Assembly (NCBI GenBank): GCA_003645805.1
Contig: QNCL01000001.1
Location: 1,582-65,581 of the forward strand
Reading direction: 5' to 3'
Length of the DNA: 64,000 nt
Origin: Candidatus Omnitrophota bacterium
GTDB taxonomy: Bacteria; Omnitrophota; 4484-213
How positions within the stretch are numbered: position 1 is the stretch's first letter; each line of letters begins with the position of its first letter. Below are positions 15,473 to 60,091 of the stretch, one piece after another. The notes under the pieces are model-generated. The model saw nothing but the letters and a program-made list of their open reading frames with translations. It was not told the DNA's origin and searched no databases. The position numbers and the translations under genes are program-made.

Positions 15473-16684
15473 ATGAAGATAAAAAATCTTTTCCTTGCCT
15501 GTGTAGGTTATCTTTTTCTTTTTTTTCTGCTTTTTCCTTCGTCTGTATATGCCCAGAAGCATAAACATATCTCTTTGCTCTTCTTTTACTCCTCAGGATG
15601 CGGGCATTGTCTTAAGGTAAAGAATAGATTGCTTCCGGAGATAGAGAGGAAGTATAAGGGATTGGTGGAGGTAGAATATCTGGAGATAGGAAAAAGGGAG
15701 AATTACGAACTTCTGCTTGAGTTAGAGAAGAGGTATAATATAAAGCAAAAAGGAACTCCCACAATATTTGTAGAAGAGTTTGCTTTGGTGGGAGAGAAAG
15801 AGATAAAAAAGAACCTTGAGCAAGTTATTCAAAGGGTGCTCACTGAAAAAAGTGGAGAAGAAGTATTCAGAATTCCGAAGAATTTTTCCAAAAGCAAAGA
15901 GGTTTTATCCGGAGATAAAAAAGAAAAAAGCGATCTTATTGTTGAGCATTTCAAATCCTTCTCGGTATTTACAGTAATTACTGCTGGTTTAATTGATGGG
16001 ATAAATCCGTGTGCATTTACCGTTATTGTTTTCTTTATTTCTTTCCTGACCTTAAGAGGATATAAAAAAAGAGAGGTAAAATGGGTAGGCTTTTCCTTCC
16101 TGATTGCGGTCTTTCTTACCTATTTAGCCTTAGGTTTGGGGATATTTAAGTTCTTCCAGAGACTGCGGATATTTTACTTTCTCTCCCAGATCCTGTATTA
16201 TGCTACTGCAGGATTAGCATTTCTTCTCTCTGGACTGGCAATTTATGATTACCGAGAATATAAAAAGACAGGAAATACGGCTCATCTTAAACTTCAACTT
16301 CCTTTCTTCATAAAGAGTTTGACCCATCAGGTAATCAGAGAAGGAATGAAAAGAAAAACAGAAAAGGTTTTTAAGATAGCCATAGTTAGTTTTATCATTG
16401 GATTTCTGATCTCTCTATTAGAAGCGGTCTGTACCGGGCAGGTTTATCTACCCACTATTGTTCTGGTGAGCAAACTACCCGAGTTGAGAAATAGAGCCTT
16501 TTTCTATTTAGTACTCTATAATCTAATGTTTATCCTTCCTTTGCTGGCTATTTTTCTCTTGGCTTATAAAGGATTTAGTTCGGAGCAATTTGCTCGTTTT
16601 GCCTCTTCGCACCTGGGTAAAGTAAAACTCCTGATGGCTACACTCTTCTTAGTCCTGGGTATAGCCTTACTTATCCTTCACTGA
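15473..16684 (+). CDS. thioredoxin-like domain fused to CcdA/DsbD-type transmembrane thiol-disulfide transporter
   Basis: Signal peptide. N-terminal thioredoxin-like domain with CGHC (CxxC). C-terminal polytopic domain with the CcdA-like motif DGINPCAF and a second TM cysteine (LEAVCTG). Confidence 0.6.
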   Translation: MKIKNLFLACVGYLFLFFLLFPSSVYAQKHKHISLLFFYSSGCGHCLKVKNRLLPEIERKYKGLVEVEYLEIGKRENYELLLELEKRYNIKQKGTPTIFVEEFALVGEKEIKKNLEQVIQRVLTEKSGEEVFRIPKNFSKSKEVLSGDKKEKSDLIVEHFKSFSVFTVITAGLIDGINPCAFTVIVFFISFLTLRGYKKREVKWVGFSFLIAVFLTYLALGLGIFKFFQRLRIFYFLSQILYYATAGLAFLLSGLAIYDYREYKKTGNTAHLKLQLPFFIKSLTHQVIREGMKRKTEKVFKIAIVSFIIGFLISLLEAVCTGQVYLPTIVLVSKLPELRNRAFFYLVLYNLMFILPLLAIFLLAYKGFSSEQFARFASSHLGKVKLLMATLFLVLGIALLILH

Positions 16685-16700: not shown

Positions 16701-18191
16701 ATGAAAAGAATCCTGTTACTCAGTTCGTTTTTATTTTTTCTTCTTTCTTCTATTGCTTATGCAGAATTTAAACCTGTAGAAATAGATCTGTTTGTGATGA
16801 GTCAATGCCCCTTTGCTGTCCAAGTAGAGAATACCTTTCTTCAGATAAAAGAGCAAATGAAAAAAAACCTAAATATCAATCTTTATTTTATTGCCCAAGA
16901 GCAAGAGGGGAAGTTTAAGAGCCTGCACGGAAAGAAAGAGGTAGAGGAGGATATGCGACAGTTAATCATTCATAAATACTTCCCCAGGAGATTCTTTCGC
17001 TATCTAAGAAGCAGAAACACGGATTATCGAGGGCAAGACTGGCAGAAGCATGCTATCTTTGCTGGACTGAACCCTCAAAAGATAGAATATCTGGTGAAAA
17101 AAGAGGGTAGAGAATTGCTGAGAGAGAATATCAAAAGAGCACAGAAACTGCATATCTTCTCCTCTCCTACCATCTTTATCAATGGAGAAAGATATGAAGG
17201 TTCATATTCGCTTCCCTCTTTGATTATTGCTATTCGTGAAAAACTCTCCGAGCAAGAAAAACGCTCTTTTCCTTGGAAAAACCTTCCTCGTTGTTTTTCC
17301 GATGAGGATTGCCATAAGAAAGGAAAGAGAGGGAGATGTCTATCTGCGGGCACATCAGGAGCGCGTTGCGTATTCAGTCCCCTCTCTCCTGTCACTCTCA
17401 CTATCTTAAGCAATAAAGATTTTGACTCTCGTGTAATAGAGGAGTGGAGGAGAGTAGTTCCTTCCTTGAGAGTCAAAAAACTCTCTTATAACTCCCAGGA
17501 AGGAAAGGAGGTTTTGAAAGAACTTGGCCTTGATGTTTTGCCTGTTTATATCCTGAGCAAGTCTGTGGAAGAGTTAGATAACTTTCAGTTTTATAAAGCC
17601 CGGGGACTGCTTATCCAGAAAGGGGAAAAGTATATTCTCAATCCTCAATCAGTAGAAATAAACTACTATCCTTATCGAAAAAGAAAGAAAAAGAATCTAA
17701 AACTCTTTGTAATGAGCAAATGCCCTTTTGGGATAGAGGCAGAGAACGAGATTCTTCCTTTGGCAAGAAAGAGGAAGGTGGAGGTAGAGATTTATTATAT
17801 TGCTTCTTACAATAAACAAAGGAAGGAGTGGGAAAGTTTGCACGGAACAGCAGAGGCAGAGGAGGATATGAGGCAGTTATGTATAAAGAAGTATTTTCCC
17901 GAGAAATACTTTGACTATATCCTACTTAGAAACAAGAATGTTCATAGTTCCCTCTGGGAGAAGGTTGCGCGGAAGGTGGGAATTGATGATGAAAAGATCA
18001 GAGAATGTCAATATAATCAGGGAGAGGAACTTTTGAGAAAAAATAGCAAGTTCTCTGAAGAGTTAAGAATAAATGCAAGTCCTACTATCCTCTGGGAAAA
18101 CACCAGAAGGTTTAACAACTTGAAAGAGTTTAAGGATAATGTAGAGATGTTTAAGGATATAAGGGTGAAATACCCGGGAAGATGTAGATGA
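16701..18191 (+). CDS. secreted protein with two tandem thioredoxin-fold-like repeats (monothiol CPF[AG] motif)
   Basis: Signal peptide. Clear internal duplication: LFVMSQCPFAVQVEN...SLHGKKEVEEDMRQLIIHKYFP versus LFVMSKCPFGIEAEN...SLHGTAEAEEDMRQLCIKKYFP. A 4-Cys linker lies between the repeats. Confidence 0.5.
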   Translation: MKRILLLSSFLFFLLSSIAYAEFKPVEIDLFVMSQCPFAVQVENTFLQIKEQMKKNLNINLYFIAQEQEGKFKSLHGKKEVEEDMRQLIIHKYFPRRFFRYLRSRNTDYRGQDWQKHAIFAGLNPQKIEYLVKKEGRELLRENIKRAQKLHIFSSPTIFINGERYEGSYSLPSLIIAIREKLSEQEKRSFPWKNLPRCFSDEDCHKKGKRGRCLSAGTSGARCVFSPLSPVTLTILSNKDFDSRVIEEWRRVVPSLRVKKLSYNSQEGKEVLKELGLDVLPVYILSKSVEELDNFQFYKARGLLIQKGEKYILNPQSVEINYYPYRKRKKKNLKLFVMSKCPFGIEAENEILPLARKRKVEVEIYYIASYNKQRKEWESLHGTAEAEEDMRQLCIKKYFPEKYFDYILLRNKNVHSSLWEKVARKVGIDDEKIRECQYNQGEELLRKNSKFSEELRINASPTILWENTRRFNNLKEFKDNVEMFKDIRVKYPGRCR

Positions 18192-36262: not shown

Positions 36263-38278
36263 ATGGAAAAACGAAATATTGTTTTACTCTCTCATTCTGG
36301 AGCAGGAAAGACCTCACTGGCAGAAGCAATGCTTTTTGATAGCAAAGAGATCTCGCGGTTGGGAAAGGTAGAAACAGGAGATACAGTAAGCGACTATACT
36401 CCGGAGGAGATAGAAAGAAGGATGTCCCTGAACCTCTCTTTGCTTCACTGCCATTGGAAGAATAAGAAAATAAACATTTTAGATACTCCCGGATATGCAG
36501 ACTTTATTGGAGAGATAATCTCGGGGTTGGTAGCGGCAGATGCAGGAGTCTTGATTGTTGACGCCAGTGCAGGAATTGAGGTGGGAACAGAGCGGGCATA
36601 CCAACTTCTTAACGACTACCGCCTTCCCTTCTTTATCTTTGTAAATAAACTGGATAAAGAAGGAGCAGATTTCTTAAAGACTGTAAAGGTCATCCAAGAT
36701 CGATTTGGGAAGGGATGCTTTCCTGTGCACTATCCGATAAATAGAGGAGGGGAGATAAGGCGGGTAATCTCGGTGCTTCAGGAAGAAGAAGAGAATTTAG
36801 AGGAGACAGAAAGAGAAAAAGTAGAGGAATTTAGAAAAAAAGCCATAGAGATGATTGCCGAGGTAGATGACTATCTTCTGGAGAGGTATCTGGAGGAAGA
36901 GACTTTTTCCCATAATCAGATAATGCAAGGATTGCAAAAAGGTTTCGCGGAAAGGAAACTAACCCCTATCCTGTGTGGTTCTGCTTTAAGAAATATAGGT
37001 ATAGATTCTCTTCTGGAGATGCTCTCGGAAGTCTCTCCTTCTCCTCCCTCTTCTTACAAGGGAGTTAATCCTGAGAGCAAGCAAGAAGAGGAAAGAAAAG
37101 CAGATAGCCACAGCCCCTTCAGCGCCCTGGTATTCAAAACTATCTCCGACCCCTATGTGGGGCAACTAAGTTTGTTCAAGGTTTTCTCAGGAGAACTTGC
37201 CTCCAATACAGAGTTTTACAACTCCAGCAAAGGCACAAAGGAGCGGATTAGTCAGATCCTTTTCCTGCAAGGGAAAGAGCAAAAGCCCACTTCTAAAGTA
37301 GAAGCAGGAGATATAGCGGCAGTAGCGAAGTTGAAGAACACAGAGACAGGAGATAGTATATGTGAAGAGAAAAATCCTATTCTCTTCTCCCGCATCGATT
37401 TTCCTCAACCCCTTCTTTCTCTTGCTCTAAAGCCTAAGTCTAACAAAGATGAAGCGAAGATTTCCGAAGCACTGGTAAAACTTCATAAGGAAACTCCTAC
37501 CTTTCACATTTCTCGGGATGAGCAGACAAAGGAACTTCTTATCTCAGGAATGGGGAACTTGTGTTTGGAAATTGCCATTGCTCGTCTGAAGAGAGAGTTT
37601 AAGTTGGAAGTAGAGGTAGGTGAGCCAAAGATTGCTTATAAGGAAACGATTACTCGGAGCGCAGAGGTGCAAGGTAAATATAAACGCCAAACAGGAGGGC
37701 ATGGGCAATATGGAGATGTTTGGTTGAGATTGGAACCTTTGGAGAGAGGAAAGGGTTTTGAGTTTGTAAACAAGATTGTGGGGGGAGTGGTTCCCCGGCA
37801 GTATATTCCCGCAGTAGAGAAGGGAATAAAGCAGGCAATGAGTGAGGGAGTGCTTGCCGGTTATCCTCTGGTAGACATAAAAGCGACCCTCTATGATGGC
37901 TCCTATCACTCTGTAGATTCCTCTGATCTGGCTTTTCAGATTGCCGCCGCTATGGCTTTAAGAAAGGGTGCTCTGGAAGCAAAACCTGTGTTGTTAGAAC
38001 CTATTGTAGAGGTGGAGGTAGATGCTCCGGAAGAGTATATGGGAGATATTAACAGCGGGCTGAGTTCCAAACGAGGAAGAATCGTAGGAATGGAAGGAAG
38101 AAAGATAAAGGCTCTTGTGCCTTTAAGTGAGATGACCCATTATACCACCGACTTGAAATCGATCACTGGAGGAAGAGGTTCTTTTTCAATGAAGTTTTCC
38201 CATTATGAGATTGTCCCTCAAAAGATAGCGGAGAAGATAATTGCGCAGAAGAGGGTTGATAATGAGAAAGAGAAATAG
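36263..38278 (+). CDS. elongation factor G paralog (translational GTPase, EF-G family) with non-canonical switch II
   Basis: G1 SHSGAGKT, G3 DTPGYADF (canonical DTPGHVDF), G4 NKLD. EF-G domain II-V architecture; 671 aa. Confidence 0.75.
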   Translation: MEKRNIVLLSHSGAGKTSLAEAMLFDSKEISRLGKVETGDTVSDYTPEEIERRMSLNLSLLHCHWKNKKINILDTPGYADFIGEIISGLVAADAGVLIVDASAGIEVGTERAYQLLNDYRLPFFIFVNKLDKEGADFLKTVKVIQDRFGKGCFPVHYPINRGGEIRRVISVLQEEEENLEETEREKVEEFRKKAIEMIAEVDDYLLERYLEEETFSHNQIMQGLQKGFAERKLTPILCGSALRNIGIDSLLEMLSEVSPSPPSSYKGVNPESKQEEERKADSHSPFSALVFKTISDPYVGQLSLFKVFSGELASNTEFYNSSKGTKERISQILFLQGKEQKPTSKVEAGDIAAVAKLKNTETGDSICEEKNPILFSRIDFPQPLLSLALKPKSNKDEAKISEALVKLHKETPTFHISRDEQTKELLISGMGNLCLEIAIARLKREFKLEVEVGEPKIAYKETITRSAEVQGKYKRQTGGHGQYGDVWLRLEPLERGKGFEFVNKIVGGVVPRQYIPAVEKGIKQAMSEGVLAGYPLVDIKATLYDGSYHSVDSSDLAFQIAAAMALRKGALEAKPVLLEPIVEVEVDAPEEYMGDINSGLSSKRGRIVGMEGRKIKALVPLSEMTHYTTDLKSITGGRGSFSMKFSHYEIVPQKIAEKIIAQKRVDNEKEK

Positions 38279-38429
38279 GTCGCAAATAATCTTGGAGGCG
38301 GCCATTATCTTCTGTGTAATAATCGTGTTTTTTATGCTCATTTTCTATACCGTTGTTCATCCTCTAAATAAGATGATGGTAAGCGAATATCAGGGATATA
38401 TGAGCGAGCGTATTGCAGTAAGTGAGTGA
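38262..38429 (+). CDS. small membrane protein, possible Flp/TadE-like pseudopilin
   Basis: 55-62 aa. Basic N-terminus then QIILEAAIIFCVIIVFFMLIF hydrophobic segment, resembling TadE/Flp N-terminal domains. Immediately upstream of two Tad-like genes. Confidence 0.3.
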   Translation: MRKRNRSQIILEAAIIFCVIIVFFMLIFYTVVHPLNKMMVSEYQGYMSERIAVSE

Positions 38430-39439
38430 AGATGAAGTCTTGGGGACAGATTAGCATCTTTCTCATCTCTCTCTTAGCAGTTTTACTTGCCTTTATGGGA
38501 GGGATGATTAGATTAGGGAATAAATCCCTGGAGTATTTGCGTGCCCAAAATGCTGCAGATGCAGCAGCGCTGGCAGGAGTTGCTTGTTTGGCTCGAGGGC
38601 TGAATAGTATGGCAATGCTTACTGCGGCTAAAGTAGAGAAGGATACAGGGGAAAGTCTTATCTATCCTTTTAACTACACCAGTTATCTCACCACTCCCCC
38701 TACTCCTGTGTATATATCTCTTCAGCCAATATCGGGGTTAGCAAGTGAATATGAACAGAAAAAACTCTTTTTTAACCCTTTACCTGCCTCTCCCGAGGTT
38801 ATCAACGAAGGAGAGAGTAAAGCAAGAATGGCTGAGCAATTAGATGAGAAGAAGGTAAGGGAGATAGTTATCGAGCACTTGAAACTTATCAGGGGAGCAA
38901 TAGATAAAACCCAAAGAGAATATGTAGATATAGATACAGAAGTGAGAGAGGTAAGTAAAAGATGCGCCTTAGAAAATGGCTATGAGATAAAAGAGGTATC
39001 TCCGGGGGGAGGGGATATTGCCCAATGGCAACCTACCTGGGAAGATAAAGATATAGTTATAGAGTATAACTATTGGAGGGAATATAGAAGCAAAACGGTA
39101 AACACCAGCTGCAAAAAACCCCGATGTGCTCAGCTCTGTAGTCCCTGTGGTTTCACTGCCCGCGCTTGCTGTGGAGAAGACTGTGATCCTCGGCGCTATA
39201 CCTGCTATTGTAAAAGGTGCTGGAAAAGGACACAAACCTCATACTCTTACTCTTTACCTTTCTGGACTCAAGGGAGTTTGCACTCTACCGAGGTCAATGT
39301 GAGTATCTCCTTGGCTAATAAAGAAGAAAGAAGAGCAACAGGGGCTCTAACCAATATCTGCTCTGGCGCACATCCTCCTTCTACCTGTGGACAACTCTTT
39401 CCTCCACAACCCCATTTTGAGGTGCATCTAAAGGAGTGA
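38426..39439 (+). CDS. TadG/TadE-like pilus-assembly (pseudopilin) protein with Cys-rich C-terminal region
   Basis: N-terminal TM helix followed by LRAQNAADAAALAGVACLA, matching the Tad (TadE/G-like) N-terminal signature. The C-terminal about 110 aa contain about 15 Cys (CKKPRCAQLCSPCGFTARACCGEDCDPRRYTCYCKRCWK). Confidence 0.55.
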   Translation: MKMKSWGQISIFLISLLAVLLAFMGGMIRLGNKSLEYLRAQNAADAAALAGVACLARGLNSMAMLTAAKVEKDTGESLIYPFNYTSYLTTPPTPVYISLQPISGLASEYEQKKLFFNPLPASPEVINEGESKARMAEQLDEKKVREIVIEHLKLIRGAIDKTQREYVDIDTEVREVSKRCALENGYEIKEVSPGGGDIAQWQPTWEDKDIVIEYNYWREYRSKTVNTSCKKPRCAQLCSPCGFTARACCGEDCDPRRYTCYCKRCWKRTQTSYSYSLPFWTQGSLHSTEVNVSISLANKEERRATGALTNICSGAHPPSTCGQLFPPQPHFEVHLKE

Positions 39440-39457
39440 GAAGATAGAAAGATAGAG

Positions 39458-40057
39458 ATGATCCCTTTTAACTCTAAAAAATTTTCTCTTGAGTATGCTC
39501 AAGCAAGTTTTGAATTTGCCATCTTCTTCCCGCTGTTTGTGTTTATGATTATTCTTATTATCCAATTCGGCAAGATTCTTCTCCTTAAACAAAGGGTAGA
39601 GATGTCCGCATTTCGGGCTGCACTTTATGCGGCAAAACCGGCTAACTTAGGAGCAAGCGAGGAAGAGATAAGAAAGGAGATACTTAGATTCTTCCCCCCG
39701 GATGAACAGAGTTCAGTAGTAATAGAAAACCTTCACCGGGAGATTAAACAGACCGCGCAAGGAGAGACTATAGATTATGCAGAACTCAGCGTGCGTGCAC
39801 AAACAAGACTGTTTTCCGGAATACCCTTCTCTCCTATCTGGGAAAAAGTAGAGCAAAGAAGCAGAAAAAGAGTAGAGATGATAGTCGAGAGGATAAAAGA
39901 AGCGATAGATAATGGAGAGATAAAGGATAGTTTAGCGATAAGAGATACTTTACAGAAGTTAGAATCTTGCTGTGATAGTTATGCTCAGGGAATCTATACC
40001 GCTTGTGCTTTCCACAAGATTATCTACGACCCCCGTGTGCCATTTAGCCGAGAGTAA
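39458..40057 (+). CDS. TadE-like protein
   Basis: N-terminus ASFEFAIFFPLFVFMIILIIQFGKILLLKQRVEMSAFRAALYAA matches the TadE N-terminal domain pattern (VEFAL..P.L). Confidence 0.55.
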   Translation: MIPFNSKKFSLEYAQASFEFAIFFPLFVFMIILIIQFGKILLLKQRVEMSAFRAALYAAKPANLGASEEEIRKEILRFFPPDEQSSVVIENLHREIKQTAQGETIDYAELSVRAQTRLFSGIPFSPIWEKVEQRSRKRVEMIVERIKEAIDNGEIKDSLAIRDTLQKLESCCDSYAQGIYTACAFHKIIYDPRVPFSRE

Positions 40058-40083: not shown

Positions 40084-41055
40084 ATGTTGGATAAAGAGAT
40101 CATCTCGCAGGCTCAGGAAGTTTTGCAAACCGAAGGGGAATCAATCTTAAGATTAATTCCTCGCTTAGGGAAGAACTTTATTCAGGCAATAGAACTCCTC
40201 TATCAGTGCAAGGGTAGAGTAATAATCATTGGTATGGGAAAACCTGGGATAATCGCCAAAAAGATCTCGGCTACCCTGGCTTCTACAGGGACTCCCAGTT
40301 TCTTCCTTCATCCTGCTGAGGCTGCACATGGAGATTTGGGAATGGTAACAGAGAGGGATATAGTGGTCATTTTATCCAACAGTGGAGAAACAGAAGAGAT
40401 AATTAAGATCTTGCCCTCTATAAAGAGAATAGGATCGAAGATAGTTGCTCTTACAGGGAAAGTAAACTCTACTTTAGCCAGAAATAGCGATGTGGTCTTG
40501 GATACCAGTGTAGAAAAGGAGGCATGCAAGTTGGGTTTGGCTCCTACCTCCAGCACCACTGCAATGCTGGCAATGGGAGATGCCCTTGCGGTGGTCCTTT
40601 TTCAGAAAAAGGGTTTCAGAAAAGAAGACTACGCATTTTTCCACCCAGGGGGTATTTTAGGAAAGAGACTACTTTTGCGGGTAAAAGACATAATGCGCAC
40701 CGGAAAAGCAAACCCTCTGGTAAGGGAGAATGAGATAGTAAGAAATGTTCTGCTAAGGATAACTCAAGCCCGTGCAGGAGCAGCAGTAGTAGTAGATGCT
40801 TATGGAAAGTTGGTGGGTATATTTACTGATGGAGACTTGAGACGGCATTTAGAGAAAGATGTACATCTTCTTAAAAGAAAAGTAAGCGAAGTAATGAGCA
40901 GAAAACCTGTAGTAGTAGATAAAGAGAGATTGGTAGTGGAGTGTGTAAAGATATTCGAGGAGAAGAAGATAGATGAGATTCCAGTAGTAGATGAGAATAA
41001 TATAGTAATCGGATTGTTGGATGTTCAGGATGTGTTAAAGTCAGGAGTGGTATAG
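40084..41055 (+). CDS. kdsD: arabinose-5-phosphate isomerase (SIS + tandem CBS)
   Basis: SIS motif GRVIIIGMGKPGIIAKKISATLASTGTPSFFLHPAEAAHGDLGMV plus C-terminal CBS pair. Confidence 0.85.
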   Translation: MLDKEIISQAQEVLQTEGESILRLIPRLGKNFIQAIELLYQCKGRVIIIGMGKPGIIAKKISATLASTGTPSFFLHPAEAAHGDLGMVTERDIVVILSNSGETEEIIKILPSIKRIGSKIVALTGKVNSTLARNSDVVLDTSVEKEACKLGLAPTSSTTAMLAMGDALAVVLFQKKGFRKEDYAFFHPGGILGKRLLLRVKDIMRTGKANPLVRENEIVRNVLLRITQARAGAAVVVDAYGKLVGIFTDGDLRRHLEKDVHLLKRKVSEVMSRKPVVVDKERLVVECVKIFEEKKIDEIPVVDENNIVIGLLDVQDVLKSGVV

Positions 41056-41072
41056 ATAATCCCTCAGTTTAC

Positions 41073-41627
41073 TTGCCGAGAGAGATGGAAGAGAGGTTGG
41101 TAGAAAAATTCAAAAGGGTTAAACTTCTTCTCTTAGATGTAGATGGAGTGCTCACAGAAGGGAGAATAATGTTTTTGGGAAACATAGAGGAAATAAAGTG
41201 CTTTGATGTATATGATGGATTAGGGGTGGTGTTGCTGAAAAGGGCAGGGATTAAAACTATAATCATTACTGCCAAAAAGTCATCAGCGGTAAGAAAAAGG
41301 GCAAAGGAGATGGAGATAGAGGAGGTATATCAAGGAGTGCAGAATAAACTAAAAGTTTATCAAAAGATTCTCAAAAAACACAAGGTTCTTCCTGAGGAGA
41401 TAGGTTTTATAGGAGATGAGATAATAGATCTACCGGTATTGGAAAAGGTAGGTTTAAGCATTGCTGTGCCCAACGCAGTTGAGGAAGTAAAGCAAAAGGT
41501 AGACTATATTACCCATAAAGAAGGAGGAAGAGGGGCGGTGCGCGAGGTTTGTGAAATAATCTTAAAAACTCAAGGAAAATGGGAAGGGGCAATAAAGCGA
41601 TTTCTTAACCTTGAGAATTCTCATTAG
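41073..41627 (+). CDS. kdsC: 3-deoxy-D-manno-octulosonate 8-phosphate phosphatase (HAD, YrbI family)
   Basis: LLLDVDGVLTEG HAD motif I; 184 aa; follows kdsD. Confidence 0.8.
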   Translation: MPREMEERLVEKFKRVKLLLLDVDGVLTEGRIMFLGNIEEIKCFDVYDGLGVVLLKRAGIKTIIITAKKSSAVRKRAKEMEIEEVYQGVQNKLKVYQKILKKHKVLPEEIGFIGDEIIDLPVLEKVGLSIAVPNAVEEVKQKVDYITHKEGGRGAVREVCEIILKTQGKWEGAIKRFLNLENSH

Positions 41628-55815: not shown

Positions 55816-57512
55816 ACTCCCGCAGGAGGTCTTCTCTTTTTGAAATGGATTTCAGAGAAACCCTTTTGTCTTTAGTAGAAAAGGTAGTGAAAGAAAACTT
55901 CTCGGTGCAGGTTTCTATCTCCCTACAGAAGCCCCCCAAGAAGGAGTTTGGAGATTTCTCTACAAATATAGCGATGCAAATTGCTTCCCTTAGAAAAGAA
56001 GAGCCTCAGGAGGTAGGTAGAGAGATTATCCACAAACTAAAGCAGAGAATAAGAGAAGATGAGCAGATAAAAGATAAGGTCAAGGAGATAAAACTTGCCC
56101 CTCCCGGATTTATCAATTTCTTTCTTCATCAAGATTCGCTCTTGGATGTCTTAGAGGAGATTAAGCGAGAAGGGAAAGATTATGGAAGTTCAAAAGCAAA
56201 AAAGGGAAAGAAGATAAATATTGAGTTTGTAAGCGCAAACCCTACCGGACCTCTTACCATTGCTCATGGAAGACAGGCTGCCTTTGGAGATGCTCTGGCA
56301 AATATCTTAAAAGAGCAAGGATATGAGGTGTTCCGAGAGTATTATGTAAACGATGAAGGAACCCAGATAGATTTGTTGGGAGAGTCTGTGCGGGCTTGCT
56401 ATCTTCACCTTTTAGGAGAGAAGGCAAGTTTTTCAGAAGAAGGGTATAAAGGAGATTATATCAAGGCAATTGCTCAACAGATTTTTGCTCAAGAAGGAAA
56501 AAGTAAGAAGGAAGAGGATAAGGATTTCTTTGCGCGGTTTGCTTTAGATTCTATTTTGCAAGAGATAAAAGATGACCTGAAAAGGTTTGGAGTAAATTTT
56601 GATCTCTACTTCAGCCAAAGGAGTTTAACCAGAGAGAAGATAGAAAAAGCAATAGAGACTCTGGATAAAAAAGGGTACATTCTCCGTAAAGAAGGAGCGA
56701 TCTTCTTTAAATCCAAAGAATTTGGAGATGATAAAGACCGTGTTCTGGTAAGGAGTGATGGAAGGATTACCTACTTCGGTTGGGATATTGCTTATCATCA
56801 AGATAAATACTCCCGGGGATTTGCTAAACTTATCAATCTCTGGGGTCCTGACCATCACGGTTATCTGAAGCGATTGAAAGGAGCGATTGAAGCCCTTGGT
56901 TATCCTAAAGAAACTCTTTCCATTATTATTGTCCAGTTAGTAAGTTTGTATCGCGGAAAGGATAAAATACCCATCTCCACACGGGCAGGAAAGTTCATCA
57001 CTCTCCGTCAGGTGATAGAGGAAATTGGTAAGGATGCAACACGCTTTTTCTTTCTCAGTCGGCGGAGTGACTCCCATCTTGATTTTGATCTGCAATTGGC
57101 AAAGAAAAAAAGTTTAGAAAATCCTGTTTACTATATCCAATATGCCTATGCACGCATTTGCAATATCTTAGAGTTTGCAAAGAAGGAGTATAAACAGATA
57201 AACATTTCTTCCATTTCCCTTAAAGATAAGGAATCCTCTCTCCTAAACAAAAAAGAAGAGATAGAACTGATAAAAAAACTTTCTGAGTTTCCCTCTATAT
57301 TATCCCTATGTGCCCAAAAACTGGAAGTGCATCCCCTTACTACTTACCTCTATGAACTCTCTTCCTTACTTCACAGTTTCTACAACCAACATCGGGTGGT
57401 TACAGAAAATAGAGAGATTACCTATGCGCGCTTGCTCCTGGTCTATTGCACAAAACTGGTGATAGAGAAAGGATTGGGAGTGCTGGGAATCTCTGCTCCT
57501 ACCAGGATGTGA
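55812..57512 (+). CDS. argS: arginyl-tRNA synthetase
   Basis: HIGH-equivalent SANPTGPLTIAHGR and the C-terminal anticodon-binding DALR domain expected for ArgRS; 566 aa. Confidence 0.9.
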   Translation: MNSRRRSSLFEMDFRETLLSLVEKVVKENFSVQVSISLQKPPKKEFGDFSTNIAMQIASLRKEEPQEVGREIIHKLKQRIREDEQIKDKVKEIKLAPPGFINFFLHQDSLLDVLEEIKREGKDYGSSKAKKGKKINIEFVSANPTGPLTIAHGRQAAFGDALANILKEQGYEVFREYYVNDEGTQIDLLGESVRACYLHLLGEKASFSEEGYKGDYIKAIAQQIFAQEGKSKKEEDKDFFARFALDSILQEIKDDLKRFGVNFDLYFSQRSLTREKIEKAIETLDKKGYILRKEGAIFFKSKEFGDDKDRVLVRSDGRITYFGWDIAYHQDKYSRGFAKLINLWGPDHHGYLKRLKGAIEALGYPKETLSIIIVQLVSLYRGKDKIPISTRAGKFITLRQVIEEIGKDATRFFFLSRRSDSHLDFDLQLAKKKSLENPVYYIQYAYARICNILEFAKKEYKQINISSISLKDKESSLLNKKEEIELIKKLSEFPSILSLCAQKLEVHPLTTYLYELSSLLHSFYNQHRVVTENREITYARLLLVYCTKLVIEKGLGVLGISAPTRM

Positions 57513-57524
57513 AAAATAAAAAAT

Positions 57525-57543
57525 ATTCTCCCTCCGGGAGAAT
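57525..57543. terminator. perfect 8-bp GC-rich hairpin (ATTCTCCC-TCC-GGGAGAAT) after argS
   Basis: Inverted repeat seen directly. Flanked by an A-run upstream and A-run downstream on the + strand, so the U-tract would be on the - strand. Function uncertain. Confidence 0.3.
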
Positions 57544-57614
57544 AAAAAGATAACATCTATTATTGGAAGCATAAGAAGCCTTATCCAGAATGCGGTAAGC
57601 GTTGGAAATGGAAT

Positions 57615-58016
57615 ATGGAACTTATAATTTCTCCTTGGAAAAATAAATTCATTGAAGTTGTAAGTAAAACAAAAAGAGAGCTGTTTATTTCTTCTCCCTT
57701 TATAGATGTAGACGCAGTGAAACTGCTTTCAAATTTAATTCAGAAAAGAAGTTCAATAGAGTTGTTCCTTATCACAAATTTAACAACGCACACTATAGTG
57801 AATAAAATTACTGATCCCCAGGCATTAATAGAATTGTATAAACAATTTAATAAGGTTAAAATCTCAAGCCTTGGAAGATTGCATGCAAAGGTGTATTTGA
57901 TAGATAGCGAGTTCGGAATAATCACTTCAGCAAATCTTACAATTGGCGGTTTAGTTAATAACTTCGAATATGGAGTCTTAATAAGCAATAGAAGTGTTAT
58001 CCGGAGCGTAAAATAG
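57615..58016 (+). CDS. phospholipase D-like (single HKD motif) nuclease-family protein
   Basis: HKD motif GRLHAKVYLIDSEFGIITSANLT (HxK..D......GSxN pattern); 133 aa. AT-rich codon usage unlike the neighbours. Confidence 0.65.
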   Translation: MELIISPWKNKFIEVVSKTKRELFISSPFIDVDAVKLLSNLIQKRSSIELFLITNLTTHTIVNKITDPQALIELYKQFNKVKISSLGRLHAKVYLIDSEFGIITSANLTIGGLVNNFEYGVLISNRSVIRSVK

Positions 58017-58091
58017 GTAACCATCAATAAGAAAAACTACGAATTCTTTTAATTTTGAATTACTAAAAATAGGATAAAAGGAGGAGGAACC

Positions 58092-58376
58092 ATGAGAAAG
58101 GACCATGAGAAAAGGAGAAAAAACACCAATGCAATCTTCTCTAAGACAATTCTTGACTTATTAAAAGAGCGAGGGCCCTTAAGCACAGAACAAATTCATC
58201 CCTTGATTCAAGCAATACATCCCGATATTTGCGATGATAGTATTGATAGAGTGATTGATGGCCAGCATTTTGGCAAGAAATGGAAACATTTAGTTAGAGG
58301 TGCTCAGCAATCTTTGAAAAGGAGAGGATTAATATTCTTAAAGAATAATAAATGGCATCTCGTAGGCAACAACTAA
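58092..58376 (+). CDS. Mrr-N-like winged-helix protein (restriction-system-type DNA-binding domain)
   Basis: 94 aa; ...HFGKKWKHLVRGAQQSLKRRGLIFLKNNKWHLVGN resembles the Mrr N-terminal winged-helix domain. RBS AGGAGGAGG before the ATG. Confidence 0.45.
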   Translation: MRKDHEKRRKNTNAIFSKTILDLLKERGPLSTEQIHPLIQAIHPDICDDSIDRVIDGQHFGKKWKHLVRGAQQSLKRRGLIFLKNNKWHLVGNN

Positions 58377-58500
58377 AAATCATAAAGAGAAAAACCTAAT
58401 GAGCAAAAACATCCTTTAGAAAAAACTCTCGCAAAGTAAGATTTCTATTTTGCAAAAAACCTGACATTTTTATTTTGGATTAACAAAACAAGTACAAAAA

Positions 58501-58529
58501 TTGACATCCTGGGGAGAAAATGTTATACT
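58501..58529 (+). promoter_or_regulatory. sigma70-type promoter upstream of leuA (TTGACA, 17-nt spacer, TATACT)
   Basis: TTGACA at 58501-58506, TATACT at 58524-58529, 35 nt upstream of the leuA ATG. Confidence 0.5.
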
Positions 58530-58564
58530 ATTCCCTTAGTGAAATTAAAGAAAGGTAAGGAGAG

Positions 58565-60091
58565 ATGAGAAGAATTTTGATATTTGATACTACATTAAGA
58601 GATGGAGAGCAGTCTCCGGGAGCAAGTCTAACCCCTGAGCAGAAATTAATTATTGCAGAACACCTGGAAAGGCTTAATGTGGATATAATTGAGGCGGGTT
58701 ATCCTGCTTCCTCTCCCGGTGAGATAGAAGCCATAAAAGAGATAAGTAAGCATATCAAAAAGCCCATAATTGCTGCTTTAGCGCGCACGCTTAAAACAGA
58801 TATAGATGCTTGCCTAAAGTCTTTAGAGAAGACAAGAAGAGCGCGCATACATATCTTCTGTGCAACCTCAGAGATTCATCTGAAATACAAACTAAAGAAA
58901 GCAAAGAAAGAGATATTAAAACTCACTGCGGAAAGTATAAGGTATGCCAAGCAGTTTATAGAAGATATTGAATTCTCTCCTGAGGATGCTACACGGACAG
59001 AATTTGATTTTTTGGTTGAGGTAGTTAAACTGGCTATAGAGGCAGGAGCCACAACCATCAACATTCCTGATACTGTAGGATGCAGTTTTCCTTCCCAGTT
59101 TGGCAGGTTAATCTCTAACCTTCGAGAGTCTGTAAACCTCTCAGATGTGCATCTAAGCGTCCACTGCCATAATGATCTCGGGATGGCAGTGGCTAATTCT
59201 CTGACCGCTATCGAGAAGGGAGCAGATCAGGTAGAGTGCACCATCAATGGCATTGGAGAACGAGCAGGGAATGCCTCTTTAGAGGAGATTGTGATGAATA
59301 TAAAACTGCATCCTGAAATCTTCAAGGGAGAAACGAGGATAAAGACCGAGGAGTTGTATAAAATCAGTCGACTGGTGAGCCATTTAACAGGCATCCCTGT
59401 TCAACCTAATAAGGCAATTGTAGGAAGTAATGCCTTTGCTCACGAAGCAGGCATTCATCAAGATGGAATACTGAAAAAAAGAACTACTTATGAGATAATT
59501 AACCCTACAGATGTAGGAGTAAAAGAAACGCGTTTGGTTCTGGGAAAACACTCGGGCAGACACGCCTTAGAGGAGCATTTGAAAAAGATGGGTTATCACC
59601 TCAGAAAAGAAGAGTTGGAAAATCTGTTCTTGAAGTTTAAGGAGATCGCCGATAAGAAGAAAGAGATCTTTGATGAGGATCTGGAGATTCTTCTTGAAGA
59701 GATCAAAGGCAGAGTTCCGCAGGTCTATAAACTGGATTATATTCATATCACCAGCGGAAATACTACTGTTCCTACAGCAACAGTAAGGTTAAAAAAAGGC
59801 AAGCAACTCCTTCAAGATTCTGCTTGTGGAGATGGCCCTGTAGATGCTTGCTATAAAGCAATAGAGAGAATTACAGGGGTAAGAGGCAAATTGCTAAATT
59901 ATTCTCTCCAAGCAATTACCTCAGGAAAGGACGCTGTAGGAGAGGTAAGTATCAAGGTAAAGTTTAAGGATAGGATAATCACCGCCCGAGGAGCAAGCAC
60001 GGATATCGTTGAAGGAAGTGCTAAGGCTTATTTAGAGGCGGTGAACAAGATGATTTACAAACTTAAAGAGAAAGGGAAATCCTCGCCTTAG
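58565..60091 (+). CDS. leuA: 2-isopropylmalate synthase / (R)-citramalate synthase family
   Basis: ILIFDTTLRDGEQSPGASLT N-terminus, HxH metal site (HCHNDLGMAVANSL), C-terminal LeuA-dimer regulatory domain; 508 aa. Confidence 0.8.
   Translation: MRRILIFDTTLRDGEQSPGASLTPEQKLIIAEHLERLNVDIIEAGYPASSPGEIEAIKEISKHIKKPIIAALARTLKTDIDACLKSLEKTRRARIHIFCATSEIHLKYKLKKAKKEILKLTAESIRYAKQFIEDIEFSPEDATRTEFDFLVEVVKLAIEAGATTINIPDTVGCSFPSQFGRLISNLRESVNLSDVHLSVHCHNDLGMAVANSLTAIEKGADQVECTINGIGERAGNASLEEIVMNIKLHPEIFKGETRIKTEELYKISRLVSHLTGIPVQPNKAIVGSNAFAHEAGIHQDGILKKRTTYEIINPTDVGVKETRLVLGKHSGRHALEEHLKKMGYHLRKEELENLFLKFKEIADKKKEIFDEDLEILLEEIKGRVPQVYKLDYIHITSGNTTVPTATVRLKKGKQLLQDSACGDGPVDACYKAIERITGVRGKLLNYSLQAITSGKDAVGEVSIKVKFKDRIITARGASTDIVEGSAKAYLEAVNKMIYKLKEKGKSSP

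Follow-up and report, generated by a model that had tools for sequence, protein, structure and literature searches.

The DNA analysed here is a stretch of 64 kb, hereafter the window, from a metagenome-assembled genome (MAG) of an uncultured Candidatus Omnitrophota bacterium, and all positions below are those of the window unless stated otherwise. Three consecutive open reading frames (ORFs) on the + strand fill positions 38262-40057 and form the pilin-like cassette that is the subject of this report. ORF1 (38262-38429, 55 amino acids (aa)) is a putative mini-prepilin that can be called Flp-like by size and layout only, ORF2 (38426-39439 from a GTG start, 337 aa) encodes a large TadG-like protein, and ORF3 (39458-40057, 199 aa) a TadE-like pseudopilin. 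The gene for EF-G lies directly upstream of ORF1 (36263-38278) and those for kdsD (SIS and CBS domains) and kdsC (Hydrolase_3) directly downstream of ORF3 (40084-41627), all on the + strand, which confirms the position between EF-G and kdsDC that had been given for the trio in the original prediction, a note made from the sequence alone. Both assignments agree with model scores and with synteny: NF009381 and TIGR00484 for EF-G, and precomputed Pfam domains for kdsD and kdsC.

The same trio is present on contigs from the Logan, JGI and ENA collections, and the 55-aa ORF1 is called as a gene in all three. Public assemblies call ORF2 from the ATG at 38432, corresponding to 335 aa. ORF3 is identical to RKY39972.1, annotated as 'MAG: hypothetical protein DRP75_00225 [Candidatus Omnitrophota bacterium]', and the whole window corresponds to positions 5720-69719 of the 82,145-bp ENA metagenome contig ERZ27227318 k141_185367. 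The genes are closely packed, with a 17-nt overlap between the ORF1 start and the EF-G stop, an ORF2 start that lies at the ORF1 stop or 3 nt beyond it, and gaps of 18 nt between ORF2 and ORF3 and of 26 nt between ORF3 and kdsD. From EF-G to kdsC no + strand terminator-like site was found in a promoter/terminator scan, the counts of which were not above shuffled expectation.

Prepilin-like N-termini and family membership

Each of the three proteins has one strongly hydrophobic segment, which is N-terminal. The features looked for in a prepilin were a basic leader of short length, at position -1 a small residue, as a rule Gly, then Glu at +5 and a hydrophobic helix of about 20 aa. The leader of ORF1 is basic and 7 aa long (MRKRNRS) and ends at a putative cleavage site S/Q (a slash marks the putative site here and below); it is followed by Glu at +5, a hydrophobic helix of about 25 aa with a peak 19-residue hydropathy of 3.18 at residue 9, and a short polar tail. 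Its putative cleavage region, MRKRNRS/QIILEAAIIF, appears in the homologues as MLGNKG/QIVLESAIIF, ...NKG/QIVLEAAIIF and ...NNKA/QIIIESAIIF. In ORF3 a 14-aa leader is followed by ...EYA/QASFEFAIFFPLF (A/QASFEF), with Glu at +5 and Phe at +6, and both residues are kept in its homologues, which read ...G/QATLEFAIFFPLF (G/QATLEF) at the putative site. A Glu at +5 followed by Phe at +6 is of TadE flavour. The prepilin layout, with a basic leader, Gly, Ala or Ser at -1, Gln at +1, Glu at +5 and a hydrophobic helix, is found in ORF1 and ORF3 and in all their homologues. Type IV filament prepilins carry a class III signal peptide with this layout, and cleavage of ORF1 and ORF3 is predicted from the sequence. 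Over all six frames the window has three occurrences of the pattern [GAS]xxxxE followed by a strongly hydrophobic 16-mer: two are N-terminal, those of ORF1 and ORF3, and the third lies in an internal helix of CstA.

ORF2 reads ...WG/QISIFL in the window and ...NG/QIVIFL in its homologues, with no Glu at +5. Its Tad-domain segment (residues 7-52, 38444-38581, + strand) comprises the transmembrane helix and the motif RxQNAADAAALAG. An actinobacterial locus with the canonical order flp-cpaB-tadA-tadB-tadC-tadE-tadG-like (L014) was found as an N-terminal relative of ORF2; its terminal TadG-like gene shares the RxQNAADAAAL motif with ORF2 and likewise lacks Glu at +5.

ORF2 passes the Tad model PF13400 with 34.9 bits against a threshold of 22.3 (E 1.9e-8; residues 7-52, model positions 1-45 of 47), and the same domain is precomputed on every ORF2 homologue. 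ORF3 passes the TadE model PF07811 with 26.5 bits against a threshold of 22.9 (E 7.3e-6; residues 15-55), a domain carried by all five ORF3 homologues. The sole match of ORF1 was to the class III signal peptide model TIGR04205 (12.8 bits), and the ORF1 homologue of assembly GCA_021158625.1 gave no pilin-family match either. By the curated Pfam thresholds, two of the three proteins, ORF2 and ORF3, are thus of the Tad family and ORF1 is not. The original prediction of three consecutive TadE/TadG-like pseudopilin genes therefore stands in part: the ORFs, the N-terminal strings quoted for them and the Tad and TadE family matches are real, while ORF1 is not TadE/TadG-like, has a likeness at the level of motifs only, and is not matched by the Flp model. 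With TIGR03816, the Rv3654c family of TadE-like proteins (cut-off 50.95), ORF2 scored 32.1 bits (E 1e-7) and ORF3 11.8 bits; both values are below the cut-off, and ORF2 is thus not a member of that family. Past the N-terminal domain neither ORF2 nor ORF3 matched a Pfam family at E ≤ 0.1, and a search of the PDB sequences with the ORF2 and ORF3 family profiles gave nothing below E 0.1.

The cysteine-rich module of ORF2 and the model of ORF3

ORF2 contains 14 cysteines, of which 12 lie in residues 229-337 and 10 within 38 residues (CKKPRCAQLCSPCGFTARACCGEDCDPRRYTCYCKRCW). This cysteine-rich module (residues 229-265, 39110-39220, + strand) is also rich in basic residues. Cysteine makes up 1.1% of the 23 other window proteins used as background, and against this value 10 cysteines in 38 aa have a binomial P of about 1e-11. 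An unusual cysteine-rich C-terminal region was thus rightly pointed out from the first reading of the DNA, with a count (about 15) that has to be corrected to 12 in the tail. In the six-member alignment C54, C229, C234, C238, C241, C260, C262 and C265 are invariant, and the tail has 9-12 cysteines in every member of the ORF2 family. The module contains two invariant CxxC knuckles about 20 residues apart, C-S-P-C and C-K-R-C, which in the family take the form C-x-P-C and C-K-[KR]-C. As far as the residues indicate, such a pair would fit a zinc-ribbon-like site and a disulfide knot equally well. The AlphaFold2 (AF2) model of ORF2 from six sequences, with a mean predicted local distance difference test score (pLDDT) of 38.8, was unusable.

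Elsewhere in the window a DsbD_2 membrane protein is encoded at 507-1160, and two adjoining thioredoxin/DsbA/GILT-like proteins at 15473-16684 and 16701-18191, the 403-aa one of which has sub-threshold thioredoxin matches only. Public assemblies use other starts for the genes at 507, 15473 and 16701. The presence of DsbD_2 and thioredoxin/DsbA-like genes indicates that extracytoplasmic disulfide chemistry is available to the organism, and it is possible that these proteins form a disulfide system serving the ORF2 tail.

For ORF3 the AF2 model is confident (pLDDT 84, predicted template modelling score (pTM) 0.76). It shows a helix of about 50 residues (residues 11-59) on a sheet of 4-5 strands, with a helical insert at 124-170, and an invariant cysteine pair, C171 and C183, lies near the C-terminus. 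A Foldseek search with the model against the PDB gave nothing at E ≤ 0.001. The predicted fold is compatible with the general layout of pilins.

Conservation of the cassette and its distance from Tad machinery

The trio is kept in order in other assemblies at 41-53% identity, at a site shared with the window and flanked by the same core genes: ilvN, EF-G, cassette, kdsD, kdsC, coaE, rho. This arrangement was found in at least four other Omnitrophota lineages (at least five in all). For these genome pairs the identity of EF-G and of KdsD is 71-74%. The most complete example, L007 (GCA_021158625.1), reads ilvN, EF-G, ORF1, DUF2281 and PemK, ORF2, ORF3, kdsD, kdsC, coaE, rho, rpmE, ruvCAB. L023 (GCA_030640885.1) has EF-G, ORF1, DUF2281 with a PemK remnant, ORF2 and ORF3; L015 (DAOWKH01) has ilvN, EF-G, ORF1 and ORF2 up to the contig end; L017 starts with HicB and HicA, followed by ORF3, kdsD, kdsC, coaE, rho and further genes; and L021/L022 run through ilvB, ilvN, EF-G and ORF1 into a toxin-antitoxin remnant at the contig end. 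The link between EF-G and ORF1 is kept in all lineages examined, and that between ORF3 and kdsD is conserved too. ORF1 has 60-71% identity in seven relatives, each directly downstream of EF-G, and ORF2 has six full-length homologues at 41-48% identity. Since the cassette occupies the same core-gene site across lineages, it is an inherited part of that block, and is neither the end of a tad locus nor a recent island. The term 'orphan' used in the original prediction is apt for its detachment from machinery and misleading if taken to mean an oddity of one genome, as the trio is part of a vertically conserved block in at least five Omnitrophota lineages. This conservation also excludes chance ORFs. 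A mobile island is ruled out by the synteny across lineages and by the unremarkable GC content of the cassette (0.415-0.432).

The family is narrow. In a word-indexed search of 5.8 billion proteins, full-length relatives numbered six for ORF2, five for ORF3 and seven for ORF1. An exhaustive search of 1.84 billion 50%-identity representatives with an ORF2 HMMER profile gave three clusters matching over the full length (E<1e-130), and 429 further clusters matching at profile positions of about 10-75 only, which correspond to the generic Tad N-terminus. The ORF3 family was found on two short contigs among JGI metagenome contigs. When genome contigs were scanned with the generic patterns QNAADAAA and GQIVIFL, one Omnitrophota locus (L015) was among the matches listed, and the other matches listed were N-terminus-only relatives from other phyla. 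None of GCA_021158625, JAGGUG, DRP75, TadE and TadG is listed in the supplement of Seymour et al.

Within the family the N-termini are 78-89% identical (89% for ORF2 residues 7-66) and the bodies 40-50%. Such a gradient from N-terminus to body is expected if the helices pack in a filament core and the heads are exposed. Invariant C-terminal motifs, GQlFPPQ and CAFHKIxYDP, are also found in the family.

Several variations were seen at the cassette itself. Intact or remnant DUF2281 and PemK genes lie between ORF1 and ORF2 in L007 (3025-3535 of that locus), in L023 (2863-3179) and in the last ~400 nt of L021/L022, and HicB and HicA genes lie just upstream of the ORF3 homologue in L017 (1-503); the lineage of the window has no toxin-antitoxin module inside the cassette. 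Three independent assemblies break at the ORF1/ORF2 junction, L015 at ORF2 residue 57 and L021/L022 about 200-250 nt past ORF1. These repeated breaks suggest strain-level variation or a repeated element, in the form of a toxin-antitoxin insertion polymorphism or a variable ORF2 body. The ORF1 variant of L022 has 44 aa (MFAQN/IIFCIII...) and neither leader nor cleavage motif.

No CpaF/TadA, TadB/C, secretin, TadZ or A24 peptidase was found by Pfam scans and precomputed Pfam annotation among the window ORFs of at least 110 aa, all of which were annotated, in agreement with what had been claimed for the 64 kb (no tadA/cpaF, tadB/C, secretin or prepilin peptidase). A Walker A regular expression for CpaF-type ATPases matched thymidylate kinase alone in the window. 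The original prediction had also raised the case of a tad locus lying just outside, of which the trio would be the end. This is ruled out by the annotation of positions 1-78,310 of the 82,145-bp contig, 5.7 kb upstream and 8.6 kb downstream of the window, in which Tad machinery is also absent; the final 3.8 kb of the contig, unseen, are too short for a tad locus. Nor is there Tad machinery (CpaF/TadA, TadB/C, RcpA or TadV) beside the cassette in L007, L015, L017, L021, L022 or L023. The gene content of the window is that of housekeeping, with tRNA synthetases, ilvBNC, accBC, ispDF, dnaE, scpAB, pheA, rho, ruvCAB, eno and similar genes.

As to the surroundings, essentially all of the more than 60 real genes of the window are on the + strand, and the GC skew is positive across the 64 kb in all but one 1-kb bin. 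In a gene order that is so nearly one-stranded and tightly packed, adjacency and apparent operons are weak evidence of functional linkage. The EF-G gene upstream of ORF1 scores 904 bits with NF009381 and 685.6 with TIGR00484 (cut-off 659.4), fails the EF-G2 model (607.7 vs 890) and is not beside rpsL/rpsG. At 57001-59000, between argS and leuA/cimA, the GC content falls to 0.36; this stretch contains a PLD-like/NgoFVII-type nuclease-domain protein (57615-58016, 133 aa) with an unannotated 94-aa ORF downstream, and may be a small inserted element.

Interpretation and comparison with known systems

We consider it probable, at roughly 0.6, that the trio is a detached minor-pilin cassette of the Tad class (type IVc filaments) which forms the tip or starter complex of a filament whose machinery is encoded elsewhere. 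The best-supported assignment of its components is ORF1 as a Flp-like mini-pilin, ORF3 as a TadE-like pseudopilin and ORF2 as a TadG-like large subunit. Among the readings of the original prediction were pseudopilins that serve an apparatus encoded at another place, and a tip complex; this is the reading favoured here, and the scattered kilLMN tip clusters of Myxococcus are a direct precedent for it (PMC12075869). In such a scheme each of the three proteins would be anchored in the inner membrane through its one hydrophobic helix at the N-terminus, and its body would lie outside. A prepilin peptidase from another locus would trim the basic leaders of ORF1 and ORF3 after Gly, Ala or Ser to leave an N-terminal Gln and Glu at +5, and ORF2, TadG-like and without this Glu, would be unprocessed or differently processed. 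The bundled N-terminal helices of the trio could then prime polymerisation of the major Flp pilin by a distant Tad machine (CpaF/TadA, TadB/C, RcpA), and the complex would end up at the filament tip. The large, lineage-specific and fast-evolving body of ORF2 would be the exposed head, with its cysteine module held by disulfides or zinc, and might attach to a surface or to a host or prey cell. As to the presumed machine, 74 of 116 Velamenicoccia species encode TadBC/RcpA, which are less frequent in the remaining classes of the phylum, and in V. archaeovorus a complete Tad system is expressed during predation on Methanosaeta (PMC10066038).

A number of observations weigh against this reading. 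No Tad, TadE, Flp (PF04964) or other pilin model of Pfam or NCBIfam matches ORF1 at E ≤ 1. The PF13400 and PF07811 models span little beyond the hydrophobic N-terminus, and are thus silent on the bodies of ORF2 and ORF3. The absence of Glu at +5 in ORF2 belongs here too, as does the residue at -1 in the window, which is Ser in ORF1 and Ala in ORF3 and not the canonical Gly. The cassette has only two large pilin-like subunits, compared with three (E, F and G) in canonical sets. Machinery of the Tad or any other type IV filament class is absent from the 78 kb and from the surroundings of the cassette in at least five lineages, and Tad systems are not universal in Omnitrophota (PMC10066038). Finally, the tight packing with EF-G and kdsDC could reflect housekeeping co-expression, which would be unusual for pilus genes.

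The trio might instead serve another type IV filament machine, such as a type IVa pilus (T4aP) or an apparatus like the type II secretion system (T2SS) or a competence system. Prepilin peptidases are promiscuous, the layout with Gly, Ala or Ser at -1 and Glu at +5 is common to all type IV filament classes, and where no machinery is linked the filament class cannot be read from the context; in addition, T4aP genes are common in Omnitrophota other than Velamenicoccia, among which Tad is rarer (PMC10066038). The family matches are nevertheless solely of the Tad class (PF13400 and PF07811, with TIGR03816 below threshold), and the N_methyl/T2SS-type motif (G/FTLIE) is missing. The Glu +5-Phe +6 pair of ORF3 and the RxQNAADAAAL motif of ORF2, the latter also seen in the canonical actinobacterial locus, are Tad-family signatures, and the 48 aa of a mature ORF1 would be typical of Flp and not of T4a pilins. 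We therefore regard another filament class as unlikely. An equally improbable alternative dispenses with the filament: the three proteins would form a membrane-anchored envelope complex that uses TadE/TadG-like anchors, is co-transcribed with EF-G and with kdsD and kdsC of the 3-deoxy-D-manno-octulosonate (KDO) pathway, and acts in envelope biogenesis or as a fixed surface or periplasmic module binding metal or acting through its cysteines. The linkage to EF-G and kdsDC is strict in at least five lineages, with overlaps or gaps of at most 26 nt and no + strand terminator-like site, machinery never adjoins the cassette, and there is no Glu at +5 in ORF2. That TadG-type proteins probably stay membrane-anchored also counts for such a complex, and PF13400-type relatives in Planctomycetes loci (L009-L012) are likewise without a nearby CpaF-type Walker A signature. 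Adjacency carries little weight, however, in a window so nearly one-stranded and tightly packed, and the toxin-antitoxin modules tolerated between cassette genes elsewhere argue against tight translational coupling. Moreover, ORF1 and ORF3 keep the full prepilin leader and Glu +5 layout, strongly conserved, and a steep fall in identity from the N-terminus to the body, as seen here, is typical of pilins that assemble.

Somewhat more doubtful still is a combined possibility, namely that the cassette is a machinery-independent, clade-specific surface or envelope module of ultra-small Omnitrophota, or the last pilin set of a minimal, unrecognised type IV filament machine. A machinery-independent module would be co-expressed with EF-G and the KDO biosynthesis genes, and the TadG-like protein would present a new cysteine-rich domain, stabilised by zinc or disulfides, as a structure for host contact or for interaction with metal or redox partners. 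That the genes are a functionless, decaying remnant of a lost tad locus is very unlikely. The lack of machinery on the contig and the L022 variant of ORF1 without leader and cleavage motif could be taken that way, but the idea is largely refuted by three ORFs that are intact across lineages at 41-53% identity and by cysteine residues and N-terminal and C-terminal motifs (GQlFPPQ, CAFHKIxYDP) that are invariant.

Omnitrophota are abundant uncultured nanobacteria that are inferred to be predators or parasites, and Tad pili are among the few devices proposed for their contact with hosts. If the favoured reading of a detached tip cassette holds, the cassette with its unique cysteine-rich head would be a candidate determinant of host recognition in one Omnitrophota clade. 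It is also a potential marker for studies of co-occurrence and expression.

Among the systems with which the cassette can be compared, the GspH-I-J-K complex of the T2SS and the priming complexes of T4aP minor pilins with PilY1 are the most distant. They belong to another filament class with another family of leader motif, show no sequence similarity to the cassette, and have a structural similarity to it that is too weak to discriminate. The Rv3656c-Rv3654c genes of Mycobacterium tuberculosis resemble the cassette in combining one very small Flp-like protein with two TadE-type proteins, and differ from it in that they follow tadABC and encode small proteins without a cysteine-rich body. With the canonical TadE/F/G proteins of the Aggregatibacter actinomycetemcomitans flp-tad-rcp locus, of Pseudomonas aeruginosa and of L014, the cassette shares the PF07811 and PF13400 N-termini; ORF3 has the Glu +5-Phe +6 pair of canonical TadE, and ORF2 the RxQNAADAAAL motif and the lack of Glu at +5 of the L014 TadG. 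The canonical genes, on the other hand, lie directly downstream of tadABCD, whereas the cassette is found between EF-G and kdsD in every lineage examined. It also has no TadF-like third member, and the bodies of its proteins have no relatives beyond a small clade of Omnitrophota.

The closest parallel is the Kil system of Myxococcus xanthus. In Myxococcus four scattered clusters of kilLMN (TadE/F/G-like) genes are found, one of them with a 59-aa Flp-like KilO (KilK is Flp-like as well), and each KilLMN set makes up a tip complex by which the Kil Tad pilus is primed (PMC12075869). KilN is large and has a C-terminal domain without known homologue, and it was proposed by the authors of that work that TadEFG proteins generally form such tips (PMC12075869). 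The Myxococcus work indicates that contact-dependent killing owes its specificity to a tip complex of TadE/F/G type and not to the fibre. The Omnitrophota cassette agrees with Kil in several respects: TadE/F/G-like proteins are encoded in small cassettes, of which several in Kil lie apart from the clusters for the machinery, a Flp-like member occurs (of about 59 aa in one Kil cassette), and the large TadG-like member has a C-terminal domain without known homologue. Myxococcus is a predator, and for Omnitrophota a predatory or parasitic life is inferred. The two differ in that Kil tips are built as L-M-N trimers, while the Omnitrophota cassette consists of one TadE-like protein, one TadG-like protein and a mini-pilin, and in that a cysteine-rich module is not described for KilN; the cassette fits the Kil model in its composition and its detachment. 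Detached minor-pilin cassettes and variable TadG heads have already been described, and the cassette reported here is a clade-restricted addition to them that brings in no new principle.

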